A stretch of DNA of 64,000 bases from assembly GCA_050173015.1 (NCBI GenBank), contig JBFXLE010000015.1, positions 1 to 64,000 of the forward strand. The letters run 5' to 3'. Under the pieces are notes generated by a model. It was not told the origin of the DNA. It made no database searches and was given only the letters and a program-made list of their open reading frames with translations. The DNA comes from Calditrichaceae bacterium (lineage in GTDB: Bacteria > Calditrichota > Calditrichia > Calditrichales > JBFXGD01). Positions 30,930 through 46,357 of the stretch are shown here, one piece after another. The stretch's first letter is position 1. Each line of letters begins with the position of its first letter. The position numbers were made by a program, and so were the translations under genes.

Positions 30930-31760
30930 ATGGAAGAAATTCGAATTGCACATAGCCCGGATTCTGATGACGCTTTTATGTTTTACGCGCTCGCGAACGA
31001 TGTTTTTGATACCGGTGACCTGAAGTTCACACATATTTTAAGCGATATAGAGACTCTTAACCAAAAAGCCATGAATGGCGTTTATGAAGTTTCCGCGATT
31101 TCAATTCATGCCTACCCGTATGTCGCGGATAAATATATCCTCATGCCGACAGGATCGAGCATGGGAGATAAATACGGACCTATGGTTGTTTCCAAAAAGA
31201 ATCTCAATGCCCGCGACCTCCAGAATGTAAAAATTGCTGTGCCCGGAACACTTACTACAGCTTTACTGGCTCTCCGGTTATATAATCCGCTCATCGATTA
31301 TGATATAGTCCCATTTGATCAGATTATACCCAAAGTACTTTCCGGTGAATATGAAGCCGGGTTGATTATTCATGAAGGACAGCTCACTTATGCCGACCAG
31401 GGTTTGAACAAAATAGTGGATATGGGTGAATGGTGGTACAAAGAAACAGGCCTTCCCCTGCCCCTAGGGGGAAATGTAATACGCCGTGATCTGGGTTCTG
31501 TGCTCATGCGTGAAGTTTCCGATTATATTAAGCGCAGTATTCAATATTCACTTGATAACAGGAAAGACGCGCTGAAATACGCGCTGAAATTTGCCGGTGA
31601 CATGGACCCCAAACTGGCTGACAAGTTTGTGGGAATGTATGTAAATCACTGGACACTTGACTATGGCGAGAAAGGCCGGAAAGCGATTAAAACCATCCTG
31701 AAACGAGGTTTTGAAGCCGGTATTATTGATCAGGAAACGGATGTTGAATTTCTTGACTAG
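30930..31760 (+). CDS. mqnD: 1,4-dihydroxy-6-naphthoate synthase (futalosine menaquinone pathway)
   Basis: AHSPDSDDAFMF, IIHEGQLTY, LPLPLGG, MYVN. Confidence 0.9.
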   Translation: MEEIRIAHSPDSDDAFMFYALANDVFDTGDLKFTHILSDIETLNQKAMNGVYEVSAISIHAYPYVADKYILMPTGSSMGDKYGPMVVSKKNLNARDLQNVKIAVPGTLTTALLALRLYNPLIDYDIVPFDQIIPKVLSGEYEAGLIIHEGQLTYADQGLNKIVDMGEWWYKETGLPLPLGGNVIRRDLGSVLMREVSDYIKRSIQYSLDNRKDALKYALKFAGDMDPKLADKFVGMYVNHWTLDYGEKGRKAIKTILKRGFEAGIIDQETDVEFLD

Positions 31761-31825: not shown

Positions 31826-32659
31826 ATGGGACGCGATTTAAAAGAGCTAAAACTTACCGCTAATACCATCCGTCAGGAAGTGGTAAAAATGATTTTCGAG
31901 GCCCAGTCCGGACATCCCGGCGGGTCACTTTCAGCTGTTGAAATTCTGACCGCCTTGTACTTTGAAATTATGAATTATAATGTTGAAAATCCTAATTGGA
32001 GCGGCAGGGACCGTTTTATTCTCAGCAAGGGACACGCGGCGCCCGTATTGTACGCCACACTGGCGGAAGCGGGTTTTATCGACAAGGGTCATCTTAAAAC
32101 ATTGCGCAAACTCGGAAGCCCTCTTCAGGGTCATCCCGATAAACGCGTGTTGCCGATTCTTGAAACTTCTACCGGATCTCTGGGACAGGGAATATCCACA
32201 GGAATTGGATTAAGCCTTTCCGCCAGACTTGACGGCGCTGATTATCATACTTATGTGGTGATTGGCGATGGTGAAAGCAATGAAGGACAGATATGGGAAG
32301 CCGCCATGTACGCCGGCCATCATCATCTTGACAACTTAACGGTTATTCTTGACTTAAACGGATTTCAGCTGGATGACGCCAACTCGGTTATTCTCGATTT
32401 AAATCCCATAAAAGACAAATGGACCGCTTGTAACTGGCACGTGATTGATATTGACGGTCATGATATGGCTGCCATGGTTGACGCCCTGAAGGAGGCCAAA
32501 ACAACAAAAGGCAAGCCAACCGTGGTTATTGCCCGCACCGTAAAAGGAAAAGGTGTTTCATTTATGGAGAATAACAATAAATTTCATGGTGTGGCGCCCA
32601 CGGCCGATGAGCTAAAAACAGCTTTAAAGGAACTTGCGTCCGCAAGAGGACTAATCTGA
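31826..32659 (+). CDS. Transketolase, N-terminal subunit
   Basis: SGHPGGSLS, DRFILSKGH, TGSLGQG, GDGE TPP motif. Confidence 0.95.
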   Translation: MGRDLKELKLTANTIRQEVVKMIFEAQSGHPGGSLSAVEILTALYFEIMNYNVENPNWSGRDRFILSKGHAAPVLYATLAEAGFIDKGHLKTLRKLGSPLQGHPDKRVLPILETSTGSLGQGISTGIGLSLSARLDGADYHTYVVIGDGESNEGQIWEAAMYAGHHHLDNLTVILDLNGFQLDDANSVILDLNPIKDKWTACNWHVIDIDGHDMAAMVDALKEAKTTKGKPTVVIARTVKGKGVSFMENNNKFHGVAPTADELKTALKELASARGLI

Positions 32660-32693
32660 GTATTTTAACTTTTTGAAAGAACAGGTGTTATAA

Positions 32694-33635
32694 ATGAAAA
32701 AAGAATATACTTTAGGGAAAGCAACCCGTCAGGCCTATGGGGAATCCCTTGTTGAACTTGGAAAAACAAATAAGAATATCGTAGTCCTTGACGCTGATTT
32801 GTCAAAATCAACCTATTCAAACCGGTTTCAGGACGCGTTTCCGGACAGATTTTTCAACATAGGCATTGCTGAGGCAAACATGGTCTCGATCGCGGCGGGA
32901 TTCGCTGCAGGAGAAAAAATTCCGTTCGCCAGCAGTTTTGCCACATTTTTGATGAGTAAAGGGTTTGACCAGCTGCGTCAATCCGTTGCCTATCCCAATT
33001 TTAACGTAAAAATATGCGGATCACACTCCGGTATCAGTATCGGTGAAGACGGTCCGTCACAGATGGGTATAGAAGATATCGCGCTTGCCTGCGCGTTACC
33101 TGGTTTCACCGTTGTCATCCCTGCTGATGAGATTGCCGTCAAACAGCTTATGCCGCAAATCTTAAATCATAAGGGCCCGGTTTATATAAGAACCGGCCGG
33201 CCAAAGTCTGCTGTAGTGTATAATGATCATTCAGAACTCAAACTGGGGAAAGCAAATTTACTCCGGGATGGCAGTGATATTACAATCGCGGCCATGGGTT
33301 TGATGGTCGTTGAAGCGTTAAAGGCAGCGGATGAACTGGAGGATTTGGGTATTTCAGCGCGTGTTGTAGATTTTCATACCGTAAAACCCATTGACAGAGA
33401 GATGATTGCAAGCTGCGCGCGGGAAACCAAAGCGATCTTATGTGTCGAGGAACATCTGCTTGACGGCGGACTCGGAAGCATCGTATCACGGGTTGTTGCT
33501 GAAACCACCCCGGTTAAAATGGGATTCATCGGTTTGGAAACATACGCTGAATCCGGCACTCCGGATGAGCTTCTGGACCGTTATGGTCTGAGAGCGGTAA
33601 ATATTATCGATAAAGCCAAAGAATTACTTAAATAA
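32694..33635 (+). CDS. Transketolase, C-terminal subunit
   Basis: DADLSKST, GIAEANM, GEDGPSQ, VEEH. Confidence 0.95.
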   Translation: MKKEYTLGKATRQAYGESLVELGKTNKNIVVLDADLSKSTYSNRFQDAFPDRFFNIGIAEANMVSIAAGFAAGEKIPFASSFATFLMSKGFDQLRQSVAYPNFNVKICGSHSGISIGEDGPSQMGIEDIALACALPGFTVVIPADEIAVKQLMPQILNHKGPVYIRTGRPKSAVVYNDHSELKLGKANLLRDGSDITIAAMGLMVVEALKAADELEDLGISARVVDFHTVKPIDREMIASCARETKAILCVEEHLLDGGLGSIVSRVVAETTPVKMGFIGLETYAESGTPDELLDRYGLRAVNIIDKAKELLK

Positions 33636-33667
33636 AAAAAAGACTGCCTGCGGGCAGTCTTTTTTTT
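33634..33667. terminator. Bidirectional terminator between the transketolase genes and the cytochrome operon
   Basis: A-run, GACTGCC tgcg GGCAGTC stem, T-run. Confidence 0.9.
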
Positions 33668-33677
33668 TCTACCGATA

Positions 33678-34127
33678 TTAAATTCCGTGACAATTTGTTC
33701 CTGTATCCCCGCATGAGCTTGATGGTCTCGCAAGCGAATTCTCACCGCTATGGCATTTATTGCACGTGGTAACCGATTCATTTAGAACACCTTTAACAAA
33801 CTGGCCATGAAAAACAGGACCCGCGAGTGTCCAGCCGCTCGGATGAGGATAACTCGCTCTCGGGTAATCTTTATGACAATCCACACAGAATGTTCCCGCT
33901 TCCGCAGACAGGATATTTTCTCCGTGACATGATTTACAGGAAACCGCCCCTGCTTCAGCCACTTTATTCGAATGGAAAACTTCGGCCTTGATTACGGCAT
34001 TATCTCTAATCGTTACTTCGCTCCAGCCATCAGGGTGCGTAACACTGACAACCGGTGAAGTATCTTCCGAACAGGCCATAAGTCCGAGAACAAATAAAAA
34101 CATGACTAAGTATCCAAAAACTTTCAT
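33678..34127 (-). CDS. Small multiheme cytochrome c lipoprotein (3 CxxCH plus one CX6CH)
   Basis: Lipobox LMAC; CKSCH, CVDCH, CNKCH, CGDTGTNCH. Confidence 0.85.
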   Translation of the reverse strand: MKVFGYLVMFLFVLGLMACSEDTSPVVSVTHPDGWSEVTIRDNAVIKAEVFHSNKVAEAGAVSCKSCHGENILSAEAGTFCVDCHKDYPRASYPHPSGWTLAGPVFHGQFVKGVLNESVTTCNKCHSGENSLARPSSSCGDTGTNCHGI

Positions 34128-34171
34128 CTCACTATTCCTTCATTAATAATTATTATGATTTGCTTTATCAA

Positions 34172-36949
34172 CTAAATTTTATACCCAAACAAGACCGAAT
34201 AAATGATTAATAGAATCAGGATAATTCCTATGGAAAGGAACGTAAATCCCAACACATTAATAAACCGTTCCCTGCGTTTCGATATGTACTCTTTTACGAC
34301 GATCTTCTTTAACGCGCCGCTCTTTTTAAGTTCAGCATAATCTTCGGGACGATCCTTCATATATTCCTCAACGGGCACAAGTCCCGTAAAAATAACCTTA
34401 TCCATCGGGAAGGCTTCGGGTCTAAGGTGTGTGTTAAAAAAATGAATGGTAAAAATAAACCCTACCGCCAGCAACGCCTCATCACTATGAATAATCGTGG
34501 CCACATTAATCAGCCAGCCCGGGAAAAATTTTGTAAAAAATTCGGGGAACCATAGCATCAAACCCGATAAGCCGATCACCGCCACCCCCCAAAAAACAGC
34601 AAAATAGTCAAATTTTTCCCAGTATGTCCATTTACCATAATCCGGTCTTTCTCCCTTCCCCAGAAACCATTTGACTGTTCGCCAAAAATCGACGGCGTCT
34701 TTTTTGTTGAACATCATGGAATCACGCCCGAATATAAAATCTTTCCAGGGGGTTTTACGGCTCATCTTTCTTTTAAATAACTGATAAAGATGACTTGTAA
34801 AATAACCCGCCGTCAATATTGCCGCGAATCGATGAATCCATCCTGCCGCCTCTACACCGCCGATCATTTTCGCCAGGTATCCGGCCCAGGGCATTCCCGA
34901 AAACTTTAGCATCATACCGGTCAGCGCTAACAGGATAAAACTGATAATTACAAATATATGCGTGAGTCTTTGTGAAAATTCAAAGCGCCGTATGTAATAT
35001 CTTGTCTGCGGCTCTTTTTGCTTTTTCTTTCTCTCTCTCAAATGGCGAAACGAACGGGGAAGCCACAGAAGCGTATGTATTCCAAAAAATCCGAAAACAC
35101 TCACAAGCAGGATTGTCATTGCCCAGTAGGTGTAATAAAGGATTGGATATTTTACCGGGTCATGATGCGTGGCATGGGTCAGATATCCGGTAAAGCGCTG
35201 ATTAGCGTCATCATGACATTTTTGACAGGTCGAAACAATATGATGCATCCCGACACTGGAATTCGGATCGTTAATACCAAAAATAAGATGAGAATTATGA
35301 CAGTCGGAACATTTAGCCGATTTAAGATAACCAAGCTGATAAGTTTTTCCATGCATGGTCTGCAAATAAGTTTCGGAAAGTTCTCTATGGCAGGTTCCGC
35401 ATTGATCCGTCACCTCGGTCATAAACTGATCTTTCTCCACCTCGGTGATCTTGTGTGAAGAATGACACTGTGTGCATGTCGGGAGCTTTTCCATTTCCCT
35501 CTCATCCACTGAAAAATGAATGCTCTTTGTGTAATCCTTATAGATCCCTCTATGACAGGTGGCGCAAGTCGCCGGAATATTTTTGGGGTGGACCGATGAA
35601 CGGGTATCCTCGTGATTAAGCTCCATATGCGCGGTATGACAATCCGTGCAAACCGCGCTCGGCAAAAGTCCCTTTTCGGTAAGGCCCCTGCCGTGAACGC
35701 TTTTTGAGTAATCGAATAACGCGTTCGTCTCAGATAAATGTCTGGTCTCTTCCAGACTACTGTCTGAACGATGGCATCCCCCGCACAATTTCGGGATCGC
35801 CGCCCTGTAAGTATTGGATGTTTCATCCAGTGATGATTTTGTATCATGATATCCATGGCAGGCAATACAGTATGGCACATGCCCGTTTCCCTGCTTATAA
35901 CCTTTCCCGTGCCCGCTGGCCGCGTATTCTTCGCCTATTTTAATATGGCAGCTTGAACAATCCACGGGACCGACTGTTTTACAGGGGCGTTCCAATTGCG
36001 GATTAACATCAGAATGGCATTTTACGCAGGTCACTTCATTGTGAACCGATTCAGAGATAGTAGTCTTAGAGACCTGCAGGCTGACAATTTCACCATCTTT
36101 GAGTTTATGGATATTTTGATTGTCATGGCATTTAAGACACGATCTGTCAGATACTTTTAAGGTTAATGATTCCTTGCGCGCTTTATGAGGTAGATGGCAA
36201 TCGGTGCAGGCCGGGATTGATCCCGGATCGCTGCTCCATTTTTCACCTTCAATTACTTTTACATGAACATCCTCGATACGGCTGTGACATTTCATGCAGG
36301 TGGACGCTATATTCCTTGGCGAAATTGAGGATTTGGTATTGGTATGAGGCAGAATAAAGTGACTTCTATGACAATCGGCGCACGCGGCGCTGACGATCAA
36401 TCCTTTTTTAAATAAACCTTCTCCGTGAATACTCAAGCTGTAGTTTTCGAGAATATTATGTTCTGTGATATTATAAACACGGGCCACCGGGGCGCCTTCC
36501 CGGTGACATTTACCGCAAAGAAAAGGAATGTTCATTTTATAAGACGGAGATTTTGGATTCTCCGGTGAGAGGATATCATGTTTTCCATGACATTCACTGC
36601 AATTCGGAGCATAGATTTCTTTTTGTTTTAGCGCCAGGCCGTGAATCCCCGAATCGAATTCAAGCTGAATATCATCATGACAATCACCACAATGGACAGG
36701 ATTTAGCCGTTCCGGATGCGGAAACTCTTCCACATCCGCGTCGGGATGACAACTTGCACACTCCACTCCTTTATGCACAGAATTTTTAAGATCAGAAGGA
36801 TTGATATAAAGGGAAACCATCCTGTTTCCGCGCTGAACAGTTAGCTCGGGATCAGAATGACATTCAAGGCAGGTTTCGTCATCGACAGCATATAGATTAC
36901 TGCCGGCTAACAGCATTAATAATGTCAGCCAGATTTTCATCATATTCAT
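34172..36949 (-). CDS. CbcL-like fusion: 19-heme cytochrome c domain plus membrane cytochrome b domain
   Basis: Signal peptide; 19 CxxCH counted; C-terminal TM domain with [32 protein letters not shown]; exact start uncertain (36940-36970). Confidence 0.9.
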
Positions 36950-37080
36950 CCATAGTACTCTGGAACACAATTGCTACATTTATAAAAATCCGGTTGCCGG
37001 TCCAAAAAATTTCCCTTCTCCGAAGACAGAAAATTCAAATGCCATTTTGGAATTGGAGCGGCAACCGGTTAATAAATACC

Positions 37081-39003
37081 CTAAATTTTGGGTTGATGTG
37101 AATTGTCTTTTTGCTCCATCAGCTTTTCATACTCAAGCGGATGATGATGTTTCATTTCATCCAAAGTAATTTTCCCATCCATCCAGGTGGTACTCATCGG
37201 ATATTTTTCAGGATGAAGAATAACAAAAAACCAGTGCCAGATTACGATCGCCAGAGTAGCCAGCCATGCTTCGTAATAATGAATCACCTCCGATGTTTCA
37301 AATAACCAGGTTGGGAGAAAACCGATAAAAAATTCAGGGAACCACAACACCAGACCGCTTGCCCCCATCACAATCACACCCCATATCAAAGCAAGATATT
37401 CCGCTTTCTCGGCATAATCGAATCGACCAAAGCGAGGTCGCTCCTTGCTCAATCCCAGATAAAAAGAAATATTTTTCCATAATCCGATCACATCATCCAG
37501 TGTCGGCATTAATTCTATTAATTCTCTTCGTCCTTTCTGAGTAAACAGAAGATATCCCAGTTGAACCACTGAGATTGTACCCATAACAACCGCCGCGACT
37601 CTGTGGGTTACGGATCGTATGGCCTCTGTCATACCGAGTGAAACAAGTAGTTTTACCCAGCCCGCTTCCGGAAATTTCAGCGCGAAGCCTGTAATCGCCA
37701 GCAAGGTGAAACTAAGAAACATCAACATGTGCTGATAAACTTCGAACGACTGAAATCTCGGCACTCGCTCAGCATACTTATCAGCTTTTCTTTTTTCACG
37801 GATATGATGCACAAGGATGATCAGATTGTGGATAAACATTCCGCCGATCACAACAACAATCATCCATATATATAAGTTTTTAAAAAAGAAGGCGATAGGA
37901 TTTCTGACCTGCTGATTTATCGGATGCACATCAATTTTAACAAAACTTTCCGAAATATTCGCGTGACATTTGCCGCATGTTTCCTGCAGATGCGCGGGAT
38001 GAACACTCGCCAGACTATCCGATTTTGATTTGATCGCGTGTGTTTCATGGCAGCTTGTACAGGTTGCCGCTTCAGGAGATCCCTTTAGCGCGGCCAATCC
38101 GTGATAACTTTTCATATAGGAATCAAGTCGCTCAGCATCCAATCCAAACCTCGACATGAGTGTTGGAGAAGAATGACAGCTGGCGCATAGTTTCGTGGAC
38201 TGAAGAAGACCGCTGGTCGTCGCGTTTTTATCTGATGCCATCTTTATATCGTGTTCACCGTGACAGTCTGTACAAACCGGTGATTCTCCATGCCCACGCT
38301 GCAATGAATTCCAATGAATACTGTCATGATATTCATCTTTTTCACTTTCATGACAAGTACCGCATGTCTCCGGTATGTTCAGGGCGTTCAAATGTGATTC
38401 AGGATTGATGGCCGGTAAGATCGCATGATAATCATGACAATCCGTACAGGTTGCCACCTCTGCCTCGGGATCTTCGGTAATCATTTTCCCGTGAACACTT
38501 TCAAGATAACTTGCAACCGGATTCACGTTTCTTCTGCCGAACAGACGAATAACTTCCGGCTTGGCGTGACAAGACGCGCATGTATAGGCCAGGTTTCCAT
38601 GATGGACTTTCGACTCCGTCTCATCAGAACTCAGAATATCATGAACCCCATGACAATCCGTACATTTTGCGGCTGCCTCCGAACCCTTTGCCAACGCCTG
38701 TCCGTGAATGCTCCGGTTGTATTCTTCCTGGGCATCCTCATGACATGTGGCACAATTCACAGGGGTAAGAATCTCTTCATGAGGCAATTCTTCGATACCC
38801 TGATGACAATCGATACACTCAAATCCACCGTGAATGGAATTCTCGAAATTTTCCGCATGTACAAAAACAGAAACTTCCGTAGTGTCATTAATCATCCTTG
38901 TCAGATCCGGATCGCTGTGGCATTCCATACAATCTTCGTTGGACTGTCCAAAAGCAAACACCGCGGCTGCGAATAGCAATAATAATACTCGTTTCAAAAG
39001 CAT
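37081..39003 (-). CDS. CbcL-like fusion: 11-heme cytochrome c domain plus membrane cytochrome b domain
   Basis: GAGGA RBS before MLLKRV; 11 CxxCH; EVYQH, THR, EKAEYLALIWG, IHYYEA, IWH. Confidence 0.9.
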   Translation of the reverse strand: MLLKRVLLLLFAAAVFAFGQSNEDCMECHSDPDLTRMINDTTEVSVFVHAENFENSIHGGFECIDCHQGIEELPHEEILTPVNCATCHEDAQEEYNRSIHGQALAKGSEAAAKCTDCHGVHDILSSDETESKVHHGNLAYTCASCHAKPEVIRLFGRRNVNPVASYLESVHGKMITEDPEAEVATCTDCHDYHAILPAINPESHLNALNIPETCGTCHESEKDEYHDSIHWNSLQRGHGESPVCTDCHGEHDIKMASDKNATTSGLLQSTKLCASCHSSPTLMSRFGLDAERLDSYMKSYHGLAALKGSPEAATCTSCHETHAIKSKSDSLASVHPAHLQETCGKCHANISESFVKIDVHPINQQVRNPIAFFFKNLYIWMIVVVIGGMFIHNLIILVHHIREKRKADKYAERVPRFQSFEVYQHMLMFLSFTLLAITGFALKFPEAGWVKLLVSLGMTEAIRSVTHRVAAVVMGTISVVQLGYLLFTQKGRRELIELMPTLDDVIGLWKNISFYLGLSKERPRFGRFDYAEKAEYLALIWGVIVMGASGLVLWFPEFFIGFLPTWLFETSEVIHYYEAWLATLAIVIWHWFFVILHPEKYPMSTTWMDGKITLDEMKHHHPLEYEKLMEQKDNSHQPKI

Positions 39004-39013
39004 TAATTCCTCA

Positions 39014-39901
39014 CTACTTTCCATGACAGGTGACACAAACTATATCCGTATAAGCATCATTGTGACAACTCATACAATTATCAAAATCAGACCGCCCGGC
39101 TCTCGCGTGCCTGCCACCGTTACCCGGTACCGTGTTTGACCAGTTTGCAAAAGCATGATTTTGAGGCATGACTCTCTCGGCCTGATGGCAGTCGATACAG
39201 AATGAGAATTCTTCGTGACAGGTTAAGCAATTCTCTTTATTTCCTTTAGCCTGCATTCCGTGAGTCTGCCTGAAATTAAGCGGATGTACCTCGCGATTCA
39301 AATTATCACCTTCATGACATGTAGTGCAATAATTATTCTGATGACAGTGATTGCAGGAAGTCGTCTGTGACATCATACCATGATCTTTTTTCCAGTTAAG
39401 CCGGTGAGTCTCCGGTACAAATTTCATTTCCGATTCATGACAGGTTAGACATGCCTGCTTATTCTCACTGTAGTCCTGATTTTCATGGCAATTCGCGCAG
39501 ACCTGACTATCAGGTATATGCAGGGTACCGACCTTTTCTTTTTTATCAATCCCCTGGTGGCAGGTCTGACAGTTTACTTTACCTGAGACATGTGTCTTGT
39601 GTGGAAATTTGCTCCCATAATCCACAACACGCTGAGCAATACCCGGTTCATCCGGATTCGTGTGGCACATTGCGCATTCTACTTCATCCGGACTATGGCA
39701 ACTGTTGCAGGTCTCCATTGCCGGAAGCAAATTATCCGCCTGCGAAAGACTGCTATTCGCGTTGGCATGACAATCTGTGCAGGCCGCGCCGACATCTTCC
39801 GCATGTAATTGATGCGAGAAAATAATCTGATCCGGAGCCTGCGCATTGGCAAAACCGGTCAGACAGAACAATACTATGGTTATAAATGATAAGCCTTTCA
39901 T
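39014..39901 (-). CDS. Periplasmic 12-heme cytochrome c (c3/c7-like repeats)
   Basis: Signal peptide ending ANA; 12 CxxCH; FSH..H and FPH..H motifs. Confidence 0.92.
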   Translation of the reverse strand: MKGLSFITIVLFCLTGFANAQAPDQIIFSHQLHAEDVGAACTDCHANANSSLSQADNLLPAMETCNSCHSPDEVECAMCHTNPDEPGIAQRVVDYGSKFPHKTHVSGKVNCQTCHQGIDKKEKVGTLHIPDSQVCANCHENQDYSENKQACLTCHESEMKFVPETHRLNWKKDHGMMSQTTSCNHCHQNNYCTTCHEGDNLNREVHPLNFRQTHGMQAKGNKENCLTCHEEFSFCIDCHQAERVMPQNHAFANWSNTVPGNGGRHARAGRSDFDNCMSCHNDAYTDIVCVTCHGK

Positions 39902-39914
39902 ACGACAGCACCTT

Positions 39915-41111
39915 TTACCAAATGAAATGAATATGGTTTAATATACGTTGATCCGAGTCTTTCTCCCGGTTTGTCAGCCACTGATATTCCAGATCAGCGC
40001 TCCAGTTCTTTGAGAAACTATATGACGCTCTGACCGCGTTTGCCAGCTGATCTTCGTAATCATATACTTCTTCATAACGGTATTGTGAATAGTCCACACT
40101 GAGAGAAGCCAGAAGCTTTGGTGTGACCTGGTATCCATAATCAACCGTTACGCCTGTTTGATCACCCAGATCACCGGTTTCAAAAATAAATCCCAGCGTT
40201 CCATTGGAATTATTCAGCGTCAGCAGTACCCGCTGCGCGTCTCCGTCTTCCAATTGAAGAAACTGATATTCCGCGCCAAGATAGTATTCGTCTGTCAGCG
40301 CATAGGAACCGTTAAACGCGCTTAAAGTATAGGATTCCACGTCAAAGATACGGAAATAGGAATCGCCGTAAATTTGCGGATGCTGCTGCTTAAAGTATAG
40401 ATTCGCGCTAAATTTATCAGACATCCGGTATCTTCCCGACACATAGAAACGATGCAAACGGTCATTTACCAGATCATAATGAGTCTGCAACATAATTTTC
40501 AGGTTGTTAACTGATGAGTTGTATAAATTCAGCCCGGCGATTTGCCACTGCGTTTCCCCGGAATGCGTTTTTTGAAGATATACGCCCTGAATGTCCGTGT
40601 CATAAAAATTTTTATATTTCAGAGCCGTCCCGTAAACAGCCGCGTCGTCGGATTCGTAGATCTCAAAAGCTTTGTTAAAGTGAGATTCGACACCGCCATA
40701 TAACTGCCATTCCACGTTCCTGATCGGACGGAAAATCATATTCAGACCATCAATACTCCCCAGAACCAATCCGGGATGCAGAAATTGCCTTCCTAATTCG
40801 AAGTCCATCAGATTATTAAACAATCCCTTGCCGGAGATGGACATACGGTAAGCGTTAAATCTTCTTTCATCCGCAAGATCTTCATCAAGATCGGTGAGAA
40901 TCCGGCCTGACATATTAAATCTGAGATCCCCCCACTCCTTCAGCCCGGCCTGAAAACGGACAGTCTGATACAAACGGGTATGTGATGTGGTATCTTCGTA
41001 TGAATATACTGTATTCGAAATACGTCCGTTTGTCTGAATACCCTGGGCAAAAAGATTCAATGCAAGAAAACCCAGTACCATAATGCTAGTTAAAACAATT
41101 TTCGTTTTCAT
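39915..41111 (-). CDS. Putative outer-membrane beta-barrel (porin of a porin-cytochrome complex)
   Basis: Signal peptide; alternating amphipathic strands rich in Y/F; C-terminal aromatic (HIHFIW); flanked by multiheme cytochromes. Confidence 0.8.
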   Translation of the reverse strand: MKTKIVLTSIMVLGFLALNLFAQGIQTNGRISNTVYSYEDTTSHTRLYQTVRFQAGLKEWGDLRFNMSGRILTDLDEDLADERRFNAYRMSISGKGLFNNLMDFELGRQFLHPGLVLGSIDGLNMIFRPIRNVEWQLYGGVESHFNKAFEIYESDDAAVYGTALKYKNFYDTDIQGVYLQKTHSGETQWQIAGLNLYNSSVNNLKIMLQTHYDLVNDRLHRFYVSGRYRMSDKFSANLYFKQQHPQIYGDSYFRIFDVESYTLSAFNGSYALTDEYYLGAEYQFLQLEDGDAQRVLLTLNNSNGTLGFIFETGDLGDQTGVTVDYGYQVTPKLLASLSVDYSQYRYEEVYDYEDQLANAVRASYSFSKNWSADLEYQWLTNREKDSDQRILNHIHFIW

Positions 41112-41133
41112 AACTCTACTCTTATGATTAGGT

Positions 41134-41166
41134 AAAAAGAGGCGGATTCAAAATAAAATCCGCCTC
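41134..41166 (-). terminator. Terminator-like hairpin inside the cytochrome operon
   Basis: GAGGCGGATT...AATCCGCCTC stem plus A5. Confidence 0.65.
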
Positions 41167-41182
41167 CGGATTGGCTTAACAC

Positions 41183-42574
41183 TTATCTTTTTTGAACGAC
41201 AACATTTTGATTTGCCGCTTTTTCCTGGTCTAAAAATTGCTGGAGACTTGGATCGCTCACACCAATTGTCAGAGAATCTTCACGCAGGAAATATTTATCG
41301 CTGTTTCCAAGGAAAGTTCCAACGTTATGACAGGTTCCTCTACCGCAGGATACGCCGCCGGTTGTGTCTGTCATAACCGTCCAACGCCTTATATTATGGG
41401 GCGTGGCGTATTTCCAGGTCGGTTCCGCGGTAAAATTAGCAAGCGAAATACTGCCACCCCAATTGTCATAGGTGTCCGGAACAATCGGAATATGTCTGAC
41501 CGGAGCGAAATCGTATGGGCGGGTGGCGCTTTTAAGATAATTTTTACCAATTTTAAAGGTGAGATAAGATGACCCGGTGATGCCGGCACCGTCAACATGA
41601 CAGCCATTGCAATTCTTGTAGGCTTGAGAATGGCAGGTCTGGCATGATAATTTTGATCCATTTCCAGACCAATGCTGATTGTGATAAGCATTTGAAGTAG
41701 CTACGTCAGCATGACAGTCTTCGCACTTGGCGGTGATCGGTGAATCTTCAATATAACGATAATCATACTGATTACCGTCGCCGTGCATTTCGTGGCCGTC
41801 GTGACATAACATACAATCATATCCTTTGGCGGAATGGACATCCATGTAGATTCCTTTATCACTGTGAGCCCCGGTATATTCTTCCCCAACACGTGAGCCG
41901 TGACACGCGGTACAATTGCTTGTCTGATTTGGCGTTCTTCTGAATGCATGTCCTGATACCAGACCACCATTGACCGAGCGCGGTTTACTGATGTGGCATT
42001 CGCCGCAGGTGGCGTGACATTTCGCGCAGTCTTTCGTAAAACCCGCGACCATCGCGTCATCAGTTCTGAGATCCATTCCACCCGATCGCACTTCAAATCT
42101 CTGGTGATAGCCTTCCTGAGTGAGATGCAAACTTGTTTCAAAATTTGACACTTGCTGCGAATGGCAGGGACCACAATAGGTCTCAGCATCTGTTAAAGAC
42201 GGATATGGCACTAAATTATTGTGCGCGTCCGTTTTGGTAAATTCTTCAGGATTACCTTTATGGCAAGCGGTACACCCTAGATTCCCGTGTGTGGAAGTAA
42301 GAAATTCGGTTTTTACAAAAACACGTTCCCATGCCTCAACCTGAGGCACTGTGCCGCCTCAGCCCTCGCCGGATTCACCGCCGGTATCGGGAAGAGGATC
42401 GGCAACCTTGATAAGTAAATCTTTGTCTGTATGACAGCTGACACAACTGGTTTCATCCACAGAAGCGAATTTCTTCGTTTCTACCGGATATTTTTCTTCA
42501 CATGCTGTCATCCATGTGACCGCGAAAACGAAGAGGACAAGAAGAACAATTTTTCTAAACATGACCTTATCCAT
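41183..42574 (-). CDS. Selenocysteine-containing multiheme cytochrome c lipoprotein (463 aa; Sec72 at UGA 42359-42361; 10 CxxCH plus one CX4CH)
   Basis: ORFs 42359..42574 and 41183..42349 share a frame and are joined by TGA GGC GGC ACA (GEG-U-GGTVPQ). The upstream part has the signal/lipobox MTAC and CVSCH; the downstream part has 9 CxxCH but no signal peptide. A SECIS-like hairpin follows the UGA. Confidence 0.85.
42331..42349 (-). promoter_or_regulatory. Bacterial SECIS-like stem-loop
   Basis: mRNA G-UGCCUCA-GGU-UGAGGCA-U: 7 Watson-Crick pairs plus G-U; G-first loop begins 18 nt after the UGA. Confidence 0.8.
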
Positions 42575-42611
42575 TTTTTGTGTTTATATAAATAGTTAGT
42601 TTAATCATAGC

Positions 42612-42647
42612 AAAAAACAAACCAGGCTCATCACCTGAGCCCGGTTT
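42612..42647 (-). terminator. Terminator-like hairpin after the rhodanese gene
   Basis: AAACC.GGCTCA...TGAGCC.GGTTT with a downstream U-rich tract. Confidence 0.6.
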
Positions 42648-42685
42648 ATACAACATTTATAATTAAGAAAGATCAAACACCCATC

Positions 42686-43723
42686 TTATGGATTAACTCC
42701 GGTTGTTACCGGGTAGTCATGACCGGTTGCTTCGCTGAATGGCGCTACTCCGCCTCTTGCCGCTGTGCTCTTTGTCCATGACATGATGCCATGTTTTAAA
42801 TTGACAGCATTATATCCAAGAAGATTCAAGGCCGTAGTAGCGATACCACCGGTATGCCCTGTATAACAATATACAACAAGGAGGCGAGTCGGATCAATCT
42901 TTTTTAAATTATCTTCACTGGCGATTTCTTTCCAGGGAATATTAATCGCGCCCGGAATATGACCGATAGCATAATGGTCAGCGGAACGTACGCTTATGAT
43001 CTGTGGATCATTACTGGTATCACCATCATTGATCACTCCATGAAGAACATCCGCATTGTAAGTTGCAGACCCTAGTGATGCATAAAGATCAGCTGCCGCC
43101 AGCATAATTTCATCAGCATTTGTTGATGAACTGAATTCCGGATTAGCCAGTTCATATGTTGAGGATGCATTAATTGTTGTTTCAATTTCATAATCAAAAC
43201 TGGTCGCTTCACTGAACGGCGCTACTCCGCCTCTTGCCGCTTCATCTTTGGTCCAGTCCATAATACCAAACTTTAGATTGTAAGCGTCATAACCAAGCGC
43301 GCGCAAGATCGTTGTCGCGACACCACCGGTATGGCCAGTATAACAATAAACGGCGATTTTTCCATTATTCGGGATCGCGGCGATTCTCGCGTCAAGAGCT
43401 GCAAGTTTTTCAGTTTTCGCGATATCCCTCCAGTTGATATTGATCGCGCCCGGTATATGCCCGGCTTCATAATGAGCAGCGCTTCTGACACTGACTACCA
43501 CATAATTGTTTGAATCATCACCATCATTAATATTGTCATACAAAACCTGAGCTGTCATGATAGGAGTAACAGCTACATTTACGCTAGCGTCCACAATCGG
43601 CTGGAGTACATCAAAATCACTTGTAACCGTGCTGCTGCCGCCGTCATCGCTGTCATCAGAACAACCGATAAACATGGCAAACATTAGAGCAAAAATGAAG
43701 TACATTAATTTTTTTACCAACAT
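42686..43723 (-). CDS. Tandem rhodanese-domain (sulfurtransferase) lipoprotein
   Basis: Lipobox FIGC; two domains, each with GHIPGAINI and active-site loop YCYTGHTG. Confidence 0.92.
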   Translation of the reverse strand: MLVKKLMYFIFALMFAMFIGCSDDSDDGGSSTVTSDFDVLQPIVDASVNVAVTPIMTAQVLYDNINDGDDSNNYVVVSVRSAAHYEAGHIPGAININWRDIAKTEKLAALDARIAAIPNNGKIAVYCYTGHTGGVATTILRALGYDAYNLKFGIMDWTKDEAARGGVAPFSEATSFDYEIETTINASSTYELANPEFSSSTNADEIMLAAADLYASLGSATYNADVLHGVINDGDTSNDPQIISVRSADHYAIGHIPGAINIPWKEIASEDNLKKIDPTRLLVVYCYTGHTGGIATTALNLLGYNAVNLKHGIMSWTKSTAARGGVAPFSEATGHDYPVTTGVNP

Positions 43724-43815
43724 GATAAACCCCTCGCAATTAAAAAGTTAATATTAAAAATAATGGAATAAGGCTCTTTTCTCCCTCCCCCTTGTGAAAT
43801 TATTATCTTTATTGA

Positions 43816-43831
43816 TGCAAAGGGTGTGCCA
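43816..43831 (-). promoter_or_regulatory. Sigma-54 (-24/-12) promoter of the rhodanese-cytochrome operon
   Basis: Minus strand TGGCAC-ACCCT-TTGCA matches TGGCAC-N5-TTGCW; ~90 nt upstream of the rhodanese ATG. Confidence 0.82.
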
Positions 43832-43906
43832 ACCAGCAAAGCCTTAGTGAGTACCGTTAACTTTCTGTTTTGTTCTCGTGAAAAGCGCGGCTCAACAAAG
43901 GCATAT

Positions 43907-44021
43907 TGAAACAAAATGGTTCACACTTTCTTAAGTTGATTGATAAATATGGGGTTTTCCGATGCAACCAAAGCTTGAAACAAACTGTTTCAAAATGCTA
44001 CTTGAAACGGTTTTTGAAACA
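43907..44021. promoter_or_regulatory. Candidate enhancer-binding-protein sites (UAS)
   Basis: TGAAACA-AAA-TGGTTCA (43907-43923); perfect TTGAAACA-AAC-TGTTTCAA (43975-43993); further TGAAAC half-sites near 44003 and 44015. Confidence 0.6.
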
Positions 44022-44129
44022 CAGGAATAACTATTCACCATCAATGAGTTCAACTGGTACGTGAAGTGGCATGGATTTTTGATTTTCTGTATATTTCACG
44101 GCATATCTACTATCATAAAGTGATTTAAA

Positions 44130-44804
44130 ATGAAAACAATTTTATGTTTTGCGGCACATCCCGATGATCTTGAATTCGCATGTACAGGAACTTTACATAA
44201 ATTTTTAAAAAATGGATATGAGGCTATTTTCGTCATATTGACAAATGGAGAAAACGGCTTTAAGGCAAAAAGCGATTCCCGTGAAGAGCGTGTCGAAACC
44301 AGAAAAAAAGAACAGCTTGAAGTGGCAAAAAAAATGGGGCTGAAAGATGTTATTTTTCTGGACAAAAAAGACGGCTTCCTTGAATACGATGAAAATTTAC
44401 GTCGTAGCTTAGTTCAAATCATAAAGAAATACAGGCCTGAGATTATCTTTTCTTTTGATCCCGCTAACAATGAATTTGACAGTCTTAATCTTTTCCACCG
44501 GGATCATCGGACCGTCGCTATTGCCGTTTTTGACGCCTGCTTTGCCGCTAAAAACAACCTTATGTATCCCGGATCTCAGCATAAAGTCGAAAAAATTTAT
44601 TTCTTCGCGACAAATAAACCCAATCATTTTGAAGATATTTCTGATTTGATTGAATTCAAACTTGAACTTCTTCGATGTCATAAATCCCAGTTTCCGGATT
44701 TTGTAAAAGTCGAAAAGTACCTTAAGGAAAGGGTTTCCGTCAGTCACGGCTCGTACCAATATTGCGAGGCATTTCGTGTCATTGAAGTGAGACAGCTGAC
44801 ATAA
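44130..44804 (+). CDS. PIG-L/LmbE family deacetylase
   Basis: AHPDD, TNGE, RKKE, HRDH, HKSQ, EAF. Confidence 0.92.
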   Translation: MKTILCFAAHPDDLEFACTGTLHKFLKNGYEAIFVILTNGENGFKAKSDSREERVETRKKEQLEVAKKMGLKDVIFLDKKDGFLEYDENLRRSLVQIIKKYRPEIIFSFDPANNEFDSLNLFHRDHRTVAIAVFDACFAAKNNLMYPGSQHKVEKIYFFATNKPNHFEDISDLIEFKLELLRCHKSQFPDFVKVEKYLKERVSVSHGSYQYCEAFRVIEVRQLT

Positions 44805-44914
44805 GTCATCTTTCCGTAAAATTGCCTTTTTATCCCGCGGCAATGCCGCTGTCGTAAATTGCGCATAGGTGATGAATCCAATGCTGATGGTTAGCGGTAT
44901 TTCATAATAGCGAT

Positions 44915-44962
44915 AAAAAAATGCCCGATGATATCATCTTCTGATTTACCACCGGGCATTTT
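44915..44962. terminator. Likely bidirectional terminator
   Basis: AAAATGCCCG...CGGGCATTTT between convergent genes. Confidence 0.65.
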
Positions 44963-44989
44963 AGACTAGACCCAAAAACACATAAAAGT

Positions 44990-46357
44990 TTATTTCATCA
45001 GCAATTTCATAAAATCCGCCACGTCTTTTTCCTTTTCGATGCTCATGACGGCATCCACCAGCCGATCCCGCCTGGCCTGGCCAATCACCGGTATAACCAT
45101 CGAATCAAATTTTGAGAGCAGCGTTTTTTCATCCATTGGTTCACGGTAATCGCCCAAGGGATAATCGAGTATAATTTTATGTTTTTTACCGTCTTTTGTT
45201 TTGATTTCGGCGCTGGCCTGTTTAAGCCCCGGGAAAGTCTTTTCAAATTCAGGATCAGCGATCACTTTAATTTTGGGAAGAAAGGATCTCACTTCCTGAT
45301 CCATGATTTTTTCCGTCTTAAAGGATGCGGGAGTAACACTGCCGTCCACGATCGCGGCAGATATACAATAAGGCAGACTGTGATCTGCTGTTTCCCTGGT
45401 TCTCGGATCATATTTTGTCGGATCGGCTAATATATCCGCGGCCCGGGCTACTGTGCCTATGGTTACCTCATCGATATCGCCTTTAGCAATGTTCTGTTCC
45501 TTCATTATCTTTATCACCGCTGACAACGGTGTATGGGTCAGTGCTTCCGTCGGAAATGCTTTCATTGAACATTTGTTGATTCGGAATGTATCCCCTAAGC
45601 CGTCAGTCAGTATATTTAAATCGAACCGGCCGCCAAAAGTATCGGTCAACCCTTCTTTTCCGTCGATGACATGCGCGGGGCCTTCATAGCCTCTCTTTGC
45701 CAGCATTGCTGAATATAATCCGGCCTGTGTGGCCATAGGATCAACCGTGTTCTTCATCATGGTTAATTTTCCGGCCGTAACCGCCCCTAAGGTGAGATTA
45801 TGGCTGCCGGAAATCCCTATGGCGTGAACCATTTCCTCAACCGATAAACCCAGTACCTTGCCTGCTACTAAAGGTGAGGCAAACTGCGTAAGTGTGGCAT
45901 GATGCCATTTACGCTCCCTGATACCGGGTACGGCAAATTCACACAAACGCATTTCCCATTCATAGGCAAGGACAATCGCCGTGATTAAATCTTTACCGCT
46001 TTTGTGAAGGACTTCCGCAGGTGTCAGCGCGGCCGGTATAATATCACTTGGATGCGAAGGATCCTGATCCCAGTATATATCATTATAATCCAGCGCCCTT
46101 ATCATTAATGAGTTCAGAAGCGCCTGATTGATCATCGGTAATTTTTTATCTGAATTAATGACGGTCGCTTCCGCTTTTCCGCCCATTTCATTATAAAAAT
46201 CAAGCATAATTTCAACATCTTCCGTCTGACTTCCGCCATAAGCGCAACCGATCGAATCGAGCAGAAACCTTTTCACGTTGGTGACGGTCTCTTCCGTCAG
46301 ATTTTCATATTTTAGTTCTTTTGTAAACTCAGCAAGTTCATAAGTGATATTTTGCAT
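44990..46357 (-). CDS. MmgE/PrpD family protein (2-methylcitrate dehydratase-like)
   Basis: DSIGC, RALDYND, SHPSD, KWHH, TADHSLPY. Confidence 0.92.
   Translation of the reverse strand: MQNITYELAEFTKELKYENLTEETVTNVKRFLLDSIGCAYGGSQTEDVEIMLDFYNEMGGKAEATVINSDKKLPMINQALLNSLMIRALDYNDIYWDQDPSHPSDIIPAALTPAEVLHKSGKDLITAIVLAYEWEMRLCEFAVPGIRERKWHHATLTQFASPLVAGKVLGLSVEEMVHAIGISGSHNLTLGAVTAGKLTMMKNTVDPMATQAGLYSAMLAKRGYEGPAHVIDGKEGLTDTFGGRFDLNILTDGLGDTFRINKCSMKAFPTEALTHTPLSAVIKIMKEQNIAKGDIDEVTIGTVARAADILADPTKYDPRTRETADHSLPYCISAAIVDGSVTPASFKTEKIMDQEVRSFLPKIKVIADPEFEKTFPGLKQASAEIKTKDGKKHKIILDYPLGDYREPMDEKTLLSKFDSMVIPVIGQARRDRLVDAVMSIEKEKDVADFMKLLMK

Follow-up and report, generated by a model that had tools for sequence, protein, structure and literature searches.

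Sulfur respiration independent of molybdenum has been explained only in 2026, through the MccSep family, which occurs mainly in Desulfobacterota and Nitrospirota (PMC13510729). MccSep is a soluble periplasmic 5-heme tetramer whose selenocysteine (Sec), located in a D-G-U-P loop of a C-terminal immunoglobulin-like domain, acts together with a strictly conserved heme-ligating cysteine, C239 (PMC13510729). In Geobacter, MccSep is ExtKL (GSU2937-2936), a Sec polysulfide reductase required for the respiration of elemental sulfur (S0) (PMC13510729), and in G. sulfurreducens it is encoded in one cluster with a rhodanese-like lipoprotein, ExtH, and an outer-membrane barrel, ExtI (PMC13510729, PMC5877670, PMC6148476). 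The same three kinds of protein are encoded at a locus of a Calditrichaceae bacterium, in a 64-kb stretch of DNA (hereafter, the window) which is contig C15 of a 4.34-Mb genome, 97.5% complete. This locus combines a multi-heme lipoprotein bearing Sec (hereafter, the Sec cytochrome) and a tandem-rhodanese lipoprotein with the parts of an envelope-spanning electron wire. On balance, we consider it somewhat probable that they form a respiratory module leading electrons from quinol to the Sec cytochrome for the reduction of sulfane sulfur.

The cluster spans 33678-43723 on the minus strand and comprises seven open reading frames (ORFs), which all proved to be co-oriented, as had been claimed from a first inspection of the sequence (the original prediction). 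The 55 CxxCH motifs claimed at that stage were also recovered by motif count. The seven genes are:

42686-43723, minus strand: tandem-rhodanese lipoprotein (345 aa; lipobox FIGC; PF00581 twice)
41183-42574, minus strand: Sec multi-heme lipoprotein (463 aa; 10 CxxCH and one invariant CxxxxCH; lipobox MTAC)
39915-41111, minus strand: predicted outer-membrane beta-barrel (398 aa; Cys-free; 22 strands in the model)
39014-39901, minus strand: 12-heme periplasmic cytochrome (12 CxxCH; signal peptide)
37081-39036, minus strand: cytochrome c/cytochrome b (c/b) fusion 1, CbcL-like (11 CxxCH and PF01292; probable start at 39024 or 39003)
34172-36970, minus strand: c/b fusion 2, CbcL-like (19 CxxCH and PF01292; probable start near 36940-36949)
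33678-34127, minus strand: 3-heme lipoprotein (149 aa; 3 CxxCH; lipobox LMAC)

A Selenocysteine Codon in a Multi-heme Lipoprotein

The ORF of the Sec cytochrome reaches 463 aa only with readthrough of an in-frame TGA. As in MccSep, the signature of Sec insertion consists of a UGA codon and a downstream hairpin, the latter resembling a selenocysteine insertion sequence (SECIS):

42359-42361, minus strand: conserved in-frame TGA (UGA), Sec72, in a GEG-U-GG loop
42333-42347, minus strand: SECIS hairpin with covariation (6-bp stem beginning 11 nt past the UGA; loop G(G/U)U)

TGA is found at the same site, within the motif SGEG-U-GG, in all 12 intact Calditrichota orthologues (a 13th locus, L050, is fragmentary and stands outside this count), as well as in each of the 77 metagenome loci that span the Sec site. 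Across 13 sequences, aligned with a 1-nt register shift in two of them, 91% of the cells of the hairpin are paired and three of its six base pairs show compensatory changes. The covariation score was reached by none of 500 shuffles, and slid registers scored lower. An Rfam scan of 33000-45000 returned no family at gathering score and no match to any Rfam SECIS model, the sub-threshold matches being terminator look-alikes. Among homologues, one (P0012) is a Cys form with GEG-C-GG at the Sec position and another (P0104) is devoid of the Sec-loop motif.

The genome encodes the machinery for Sec insertion, namely tRNA-Sec, selB (362 bits), selA (516 bits) and selD (405 and 371 bits), all above cut-offs. 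The two selD genes lie at G000:C2:247845-248780 and G000:C27:38679-39602 in the window's own genome; the former contains an in-frame TGA and likely encodes a selenoprotein itself, and the latter is located inside a 738-aa open frame, which suggests a fusion. Collectively, the conserved TGA and the covarying hairpin bear out the earlier claim of Sec in this lipoprotein, and judged from these patterns of conservation, the TGA is a genuine selenocysteine codon.

Heme Content, Fold and Family of the Sec Cytochrome

In addition to its ten CxxCH motifs, the Sec cytochrome contains a CxxxxCH motif (C410-C415-H416, window 41335-41352), of which C415 and H416 are invariant in the family alignments and C410 is invariant in one alignment and nearly so in another. 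This motif likely provides an eleventh heme site, in which case the cluster may bind 56 hemes, not 55. The heme motifs, the lipobox, which is conserved in all 12 full-length orthologues, and U72 together make up the 24 Cys/Sec positions, leaving no free cysteine. Since the alignment contains ten conserved non-motif histidines for eleven heme sites, one heme appears to be deprived of a conserved histidine as second ligand, as would fit a catalytic heme.

An AlphaFold model based on a 59-sequence alignment has a predicted local distance difference test (pLDDT) value of 83.4. When this model was aligned to representative structures, the top match was the octaheme tetrathionate reductase (OTR) of Shewanella (1sp3_A; Z 9.2, root-mean-square deviation 4.0, 265 residues), followed by a match at 4.2. 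A Foldseek search of the PDB up to April 2026, in which MccSep entries may be missing, gave nothing at E≤1e-3 (1sp3 at E 0.5), and a sequence search of the PDB retrieved only cytochrome c7 fragments (E 0.4-0.7). Comparison of the Sec-cytochrome family with the genome's own OTR by hhalign aligned 77 columns over a three-heme stretch (96.4% probability, E 1.3e-9). In a genome-wide search, the OTR model TIGR04315 matched only that protein (C31:20688-21950, 584 bits) and not the Sec cytochrome. About 13 kb from the OTR gene, on the same contig, a 388-aa frame at 34179-34889 has weak similarity to the MccSep model (30 bits). OTR cleaves an S-S bond. The best structural match and a local three-heme profile match point, with moderate confidence, to a distant OTR-like enzyme scaffold. 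To this scaffold, the Sec cytochrome would add, unlike OTR, a lipid anchor, a first heme, a Sec loop and more hemes. Seen in this light, it looks like an enzyme, not a plain wire.

Identity with MccSep/ExtKL was considered and rejected, as the corresponding model (NF040886) did not match the Sec cytochrome (P0002) at E≤0.01; its best match genome-wide, on another contig, scored 30.4 bits against a cut-off of 250. Several features set the two proteins apart. While MccSep is soluble and has 5 hemes, the Sec cytochrome is a lipoprotein with 10-11 hemes. Its Sec72 is located in an N-terminal GEG-U-GG loop instead of a C-terminal D-G-U-P loop, and it combines an apparently OTR-like fold with the absence of any heme-ligating or free cysteine.

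The family to which the Sec cytochrome belongs is large: a database search matched 1770 proteins at E≤1e-5, and members were found on at least 589 stretches of metagenome DNA. They are labelled as Calditrichota, KSB1, Marinimicrobia, Gemmatimonadetes and others. Among 120 listed homologues, most span only about 83% of the query, their start having been called after the UGA, and several are misnamed 'sulfurtransferase' (in JGI: thiosulfate sulfurtransferase). In the literature covered, which leaves aside the supplementary lists of PMC13510729 and PMC10376724, no description was found of a Sec cytochrome that has 11 hemes and is partnered by a rhodanese. The word rhodanese is absent from the Caldithrix genome paper, whose multiheme passages treat Nap and epsilon-Hao, not this cluster (PMC5317091).

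The Rhodanese Partner

Both PF00581 domains of the rhodanese lipoprotein (4.4e-35) carry the active-site loop CYTGHTG, which, like the lipobox cysteine, is invariant in 12 of 12 aligned orthologues. The 13 Calditrichota loci that encode the Sec cytochrome (12 intact loci and the fragmentary L050) are also those in which the rhodanese was found. In metagenomes, 42 loci offer 1.2 kb or more of flanking sequence in each direction, and in 41 of them the rhodanese gene is located within 1.5 kb of the Sec-cytochrome gene. By its gene neighborhoods, the rhodanese is a fixed partner of the Sec cytochrome.

A comparable association has been reported in Dethiobacter, where a SirA/Otr-like multiheme protein with rhodanese neighbors is up-regulated on thiosulfate; the paper makes no mention of selenium (PMC10376724). 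This protein, which may or may not belong to the same family as the Sec cytochrome, was formerly misnamed thiosulfate sulfurtransferase (PMC10376724).

All three lipoproteins of the cluster have acidic residues after the lipidated cysteine. Such residues resemble the surface-export signals of Bacteroidota.

The Predicted Electron Wire

In MtrCAB of Shewanella (PDB 6R2Q) and in the Pcc systems of Geobacter, a lipoprotein cytochrome, a barrel and a periplasmic multi-heme cytochrome form a triad, to which the Sec cytochrome, the 398-aa barrel protein and the 12-heme cytochrome correspond in kind. The barrel protein has no match in Pfam or NCBIfam. The original prediction had made its case depend on 39915-41111 encoding a beta-barrel, and the AlphaFold2 model indeed folds as one, with 22 strands (pLDDT 96.0; predicted template modelling score 0.86). 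A Foldseek search of the PDB gave 385 matches at E≤1e-3 and, among the matches listed, these were outer-membrane barrels throughout. The barrel family comprises 181 representative clusters in 1.84 billion proteins, and a scan of genome contigs with the barrel protein alone found one near-identical metagenome-assembled genome only.

Modeling of the barrel with the 12-heme cytochrome gave a mark of 0.62, against 0.09 for the best control; among reference cases, 58 of 80 solved complexes attain this mark, as do 2 of 110 mismatched pairs. The contacts agreed between runs by at least 89%, with a pLDDT of at least 70 for the partner, and the inward-facing residues of the barrel, all round, contact residues 146-295 of the cytochrome. 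The 12-heme cytochrome is therefore predicted by the model to sit inside the barrel, in the manner of MtrCAB.

By family, the triad differs from MtrCAB. The barrel has no MtrB/PioB match in Pfam, and the 12-heme protein, with 22 bits to TIGR03508 (DmsE/MtrA; cut-off 192.2), falls outside MtrCAB membership. The outer partner is an enzyme-like Sec protein accompanied by a rhodanese. In size also, the barrel departs from MtrB, which has 26 strands: with 22 strands and 398 aa, it is much smaller.

On the side of the inner membrane, the two c/b fusions match PF01292 (2e-15 for fusion 1 and 3.2e-8 for fusion 2) and each have 4-5 hydrophobic helices that carry histidines; fusion 1 has five, with histidine residues in the C-terminal part. 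Both display the architecture of CbcL (GSU0274), a quinone oxidoreductase for low-potential acceptors in which a c domain with several hemes continues into a membrane-embedded, di-heme cytochrome b of the HydC/FdnI type (PMC9129911). CbcL has 9 c-hemes and the CbcL-like proteins encoded here, in two tandem copies, 11 and 19.

The analogy with the Geobacter ext cluster, drawn in the original prediction, holds, and it is stronger since ExtKL is MccSep, a proven Sec polysulfide reductase (PMC13510729). At the same time, no protein of the cluster qualifies as an ext equivalog: the models for ExtH (NF040901), ExtM (NF040943) and ExtS (NF040971) were tried and rejected, with 23.5, 37 and 15.8 bits against cut-offs of 200, 800 and 100, and the barrel gave no ExtI-type match. 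The architecture thus truly differs from that of Geobacter, as had also been foreseen. Unlike the ext cluster, it includes a cytochrome predicted within the barrel and two encoded c/b fusions, putative quinol oxidases.

Conservation of the Cluster

The comparison set comprised 16 loci with an orthologous barrel gene (47-93% identity). The 12-heme gene is found in all 16, and the Sec cytochrome together with the rhodanese in 13, one more locus ending at a contig edge and two lacking both. The 11-heme c/b fusion is present in 12 loci (two end at contig edges and two are without it), the 3-heme gene, in varying positions, in 13, and the 19-heme c/b fusion in 6. The co-conservation on which the original prediction had been made to depend is thus borne out by a shared gene order, and because this order is kept in related genomes, the cluster is more than a chance assembly.

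Several loci show particular arrangements. In L045 (G042:C19; 11113-12825 and 13433-16347), a different 570-aa multi-heme lipoprotein precedes the wire core, and a histidine kinase and a sigma-54 response regulator flank it. In L036 (9419-12658) and L048 (15723-17887), a 4Fe-4S dicluster protein and an NrfD-like membrane protein adjoin the cluster, accompanied in L036 by a c3-type cytochrome; this module is possibly a second link to quinol. In L050 (G040:C10; 6661-16588) and L049 (G044:C8; 3734-8479), the genes for the Sec cytochrome, the barrel or the c/b fusions can be matched only in pieces and in differing frames, reflecting either decay of the cluster or assembly errors. A stop codon in the 12-heme gene of L049 was considered as a second Sec and rejected, since it falls in the leader before the likely start; the L049 row was left out of the 12-heme alignment.

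Around the cluster, the window contains housekeeping genes, encoding a PIG-L deacetylase, PrpD, an isocitrate/isopropylmalate dehydrogenase, a split transketolase and a PF02621 menaquinone protein, and the cluster hence appears as a self-contained island. The latter gene (30930-31760) had been put forward as mqnD and as a hint to a menaquinone donor. The PF02621 match agrees with the assignment, but in housekeeping surroundings it adds little to the argument. The transketolase is encoded by two adjoining genes for the N- and C-terminal halves (31826-33635), convergent with the cluster and sharing a terminator with it. On the other side, the gene for the PIG-L family deacetylase (44130-44804, plus strand) diverges from the promoter region of the cluster; the relative L048 has a PAS-domain sigma-54 activator at this place.

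Promoter and Transcript Structure

The following elements were found upstream of, within and after the cluster:

43976-43992: exact palindrome TGAAACA-N3-TGTTTCA, candidate enhancer-binding-protein site (upstream activating sequence)
43907-43923: second copy of the palindrome, 1 mismatch
43817-43831, minus strand: sigma-54 -24/-12 element TGGCACACCCTTTGC (TGGCAC-N5-TTGC), about 94 nt upstream of the rhodanese ATG
42617-42649, minus strand: terminator-like hairpin and U-tract after the rhodanese gene (-22 kcal/mol, z -5.9, none of 200 shuffles as good)
41138-41167, minus strand: terminator-like hairpin after the Sec-cytochrome gene (-20.3 kcal/mol, z -5.2)
36990-37068, minus strand: long hairpin with a U-run behind it, in the 140 nt that separate the c/b fusions (-38.2 kcal/mol, z -2.15; weaker support)
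33634-33667, both strands: bidirectional terminator closing the cluster (-19.9 kcal/mol, z -5.8)

The sigma-54 element is the only zero-mismatch match in the window. Of the 10 relatives' loci in which the rhodanese gene comes first, 6 have a site with at most one mismatch, placed 65-110 nt upstream of this gene. The genome contains rpoN (421.7 bits). A sigma-70 scan was uninformative (29 sites against 27.4 expected). With at most one mismatch, the palindrome occurs at only 3 sites in the 4.34-Mb genome, two of which are 75-160 nt upstream of the promoter; the third, on C19, is inside an ORF and was judged to be due to chance. Similar palindromes were seen by eye upstream of the orthologous promoters. 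Sigma-54 activators adjoin the cluster in L048, L041 and L045. None was found next to the cluster in the window's neighborhood, and the genome has about 26 matches to the activator domain, among which a cognate regulator cannot be distinguished. Of the original proposal of a single sigma-54 operon, the promoter stands, with its perfect and conserved -24/-12 site and the presence of rpoN, while the three internal terminator-like hairpins call the single transcript into question.

Proposed Mechanism and Alternatives

The cluster could be read as a sigma-54-controlled respiratory module made of an electron wire and a catalytic end. Electrons from menaquinol would enter through the cytochrome b domains of the two CbcL-like inner-membrane proteins, run along their 11- and 19-heme periplasmic arms and cross the outer membrane through the 12-heme cytochrome threaded into the 22-strand barrel. 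The catalytic end would be the OTR-like lipoprotein with 10-11 hemes, whose only non-heme chalcogen would be the Sec, carried by a flexible loop rich in glycine that directly follows the first heme, and which would pair with a lipoprotein bearing two active rhodanese domains. The rhodanese would take up sulfane sulfur (from S0, polysulfide and possibly thiosulfate or tetrathionate) as a persulfide and pass it to the selenolate, and the hemes would reduce the resulting Se-S adduct to sulfide.

Sulfane-sulfur reduction is proposed because of the MccSep precedent, the rhodanese partner, the OTR-like fold and the type of quinol oxidase, suited to low-potential acceptors. The computations show the gene content, the signals for Sec decoding, the co-conservation, the fold of the barrel and a supported model of barrel and 12-heme cytochrome; we infer which way the electrons flow, that the enzyme is at the surface, which substrate it reduces (S0/polysulfide, thiosulfate/tetrathionate, Se/Te or metals) and how the Sec reacts. 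Surface exposure, in particular, would follow from the gene order and from the acidic residues after the lipidated cysteine. The original interpretation, a wire from quinol to the surface ending in a Sec cytochrome, is thus partly supported and its mechanism plausible.

Several observations weigh against this proposal. In the model of the Sec cytochrome, residues 67-73, which form the Sec loop, have pLDDT values under 50, too low to place the Sec relative to the hemes. The Z score of 9.2 to OTR is only modestly above the reach of unrelated models, according to the aligner's own note. As a like complex, MtrAB, is already solved, the favorable model of the barrel with the 12-heme cytochrome could reflect likeness to that structure and may partly be carried over from it by the predictor, though no sequence family match accompanies it. 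The MccSep mechanism is not simply transferable, since the Sec cytochrome has no heme-ligating cysteine. Furthermore, the hairpins after genes 1, 2 and 5 may split the cluster into separately tuned transcripts. In the genome paper on Caldithrix abyssi, S0 gave no respiratory growth with H2 or acetate (PMC5317091).

Gene content also speaks against an obligate assembly. L039 and L046 have no c/b fusion nearby, and L045 has the orthologous wire of barrel, 12-heme cytochrome and c/b fusion without the rhodanese or the Sec cytochrome. Since this wire is found with a different outer cytochrome, the link between wire and enzyme is modular and not obligate. Reciprocally, the Sec gene is flanked by 3 kb or more in each direction in 21 metagenome loci. 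Only 3 of these show genes for a barrel and a 12-heme cytochrome, whereas in the other 18 neither is detectable beside the rhodanese/Sec pair. The wire is hence an add-on in this lineage and not a fixed part. As far as gene content tells, the cluster thus consists of a wire module and an enzyme module that have come together in this lineage.

In a first alternative, the cluster would be a Pcc/Mtr-type conduit for Fe(III)/Mn(IV) oxides, an electrode or partner cells, with the Sec cytochrome as terminal metal reductase, like MtrC or OmcB, and the rhodanese as an accessory. Known conduits likewise line up a lipoprotein cytochrome, a barrel and a periplasmic cytochrome, four cytochromes of the cluster match the MtrC/MtrF domain PF22113 (30-58 bits), and L045 joins the same barrel and 12-heme core to a lipoprotein cytochrome without Sec. 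In addition, Geobacter uses proteins of the CbcL type to reduce Fe(III) oxides (PMC9129911). Yet no part in metal reduction is known for the near-obligate rhodanese (41 of 42 loci) or for the conserved Sec, the modelled fold of the Sec cytochrome resembles OTR and not MtrC or OmcA, and the rhodanese/Sec pair occurs mostly without a porin, which makes a metal conduit unlikely.

The lack of a porin in most family members would also fit a periplasmic enzyme. In this alternative, the Sec cytochrome and the rhodanese would be held in the inner leaflet of the outer membrane, facing the periplasm. As in Geobacter, polysulfide or selenite would be imported and then reduced there, the c/b fusions supplying the electrons and the barrel being an ExtI-like channel or an independent conduit. 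MccSep is periplasmic (PMC13510729), ExtI is reported as a selenite-uptake porin (PMC13510729, PMC5877670), and some family members directly adjoin a c/b fusion, for example in L073. In the model of the complex, however, the 12-heme cytochrome fills the lumen of the barrel and leaves little room for solutes. Moreover, a lipoprotein-cytochrome gene beside a barrel gene mirrors conduits in which that protein is external, and the acidic residues past the lipidated cysteine have their counterpart in the surface-export signals of Bacteroidota. A periplasmic location of the enzyme, separate from the channel, is accordingly improbable.

Reversal of the wire, with extracellular sulfide, S0 or thiosulfate being oxidized and the electrons led inside to serve the quinone pool or reductases of the periplasm, appears very unlikely. 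Multiheme conduits are reversible in principle and His/Cys multihemes such as TsdA run oxidatively (PMC13510729), but CbcL-type proteins are known quinol oxidases for low-potential acceptors (PMC9129911) and no sulfur-oxidation genes were seen in the neighborhood. Reduction or detoxification of selenite or tellurite as the main role, as first proposed for the Geobacter ext cluster, is scarcely credible, for although MccSep also reduces selenite (PMC13510729) and the ExtH, ExtM and ExtS models gave weak sub-threshold matches, these matches are far under the cut-offs, MccSep prefers polysulfide (PMC13510729) and the wire, with its roughly 55 hemes and two putative quinol oxidases, would be a heavy kit for detoxification.

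Returning to sulfane-sulfur reduction through a quinol-to-Sec-cytochrome module, a more specific form of it can be put forward, tentatively. The Sec cytochrome might be a surface selenoenzyme that directly attacks insoluble S0 or rhodanese-bound persulfide in the cell's exterior and is powered by a dedicated heme wire from quinol to the surface, with the selenolate possibly acting as sixth ligand of the heme without conserved histidine. If this is true, it would be an extracellular sulfur reductase free of both molybdenum and catalytic cysteine, with an origin independent of MccSep, and would answer a question left by MccSep, namely how electrons and extracellular sulfur meet.

Significance

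The Sec cytochrome apparently represents a second, undescribed family of multi-heme Sec proteins, unrelated to MccSep, and one which is routinely truncated at the UGA in annotation. In the lineage of the window, this enzyme is plugged onto a complete porin-cytochrome wire, which suggests extracellular reduction of sulfur compounds. The comparison with L045 constitutes a natural experiment in the modular exchange of terminal reductases on one conduit. The suggested hosts are bacteria that abound in sediments and of whose energy metabolism little is known.

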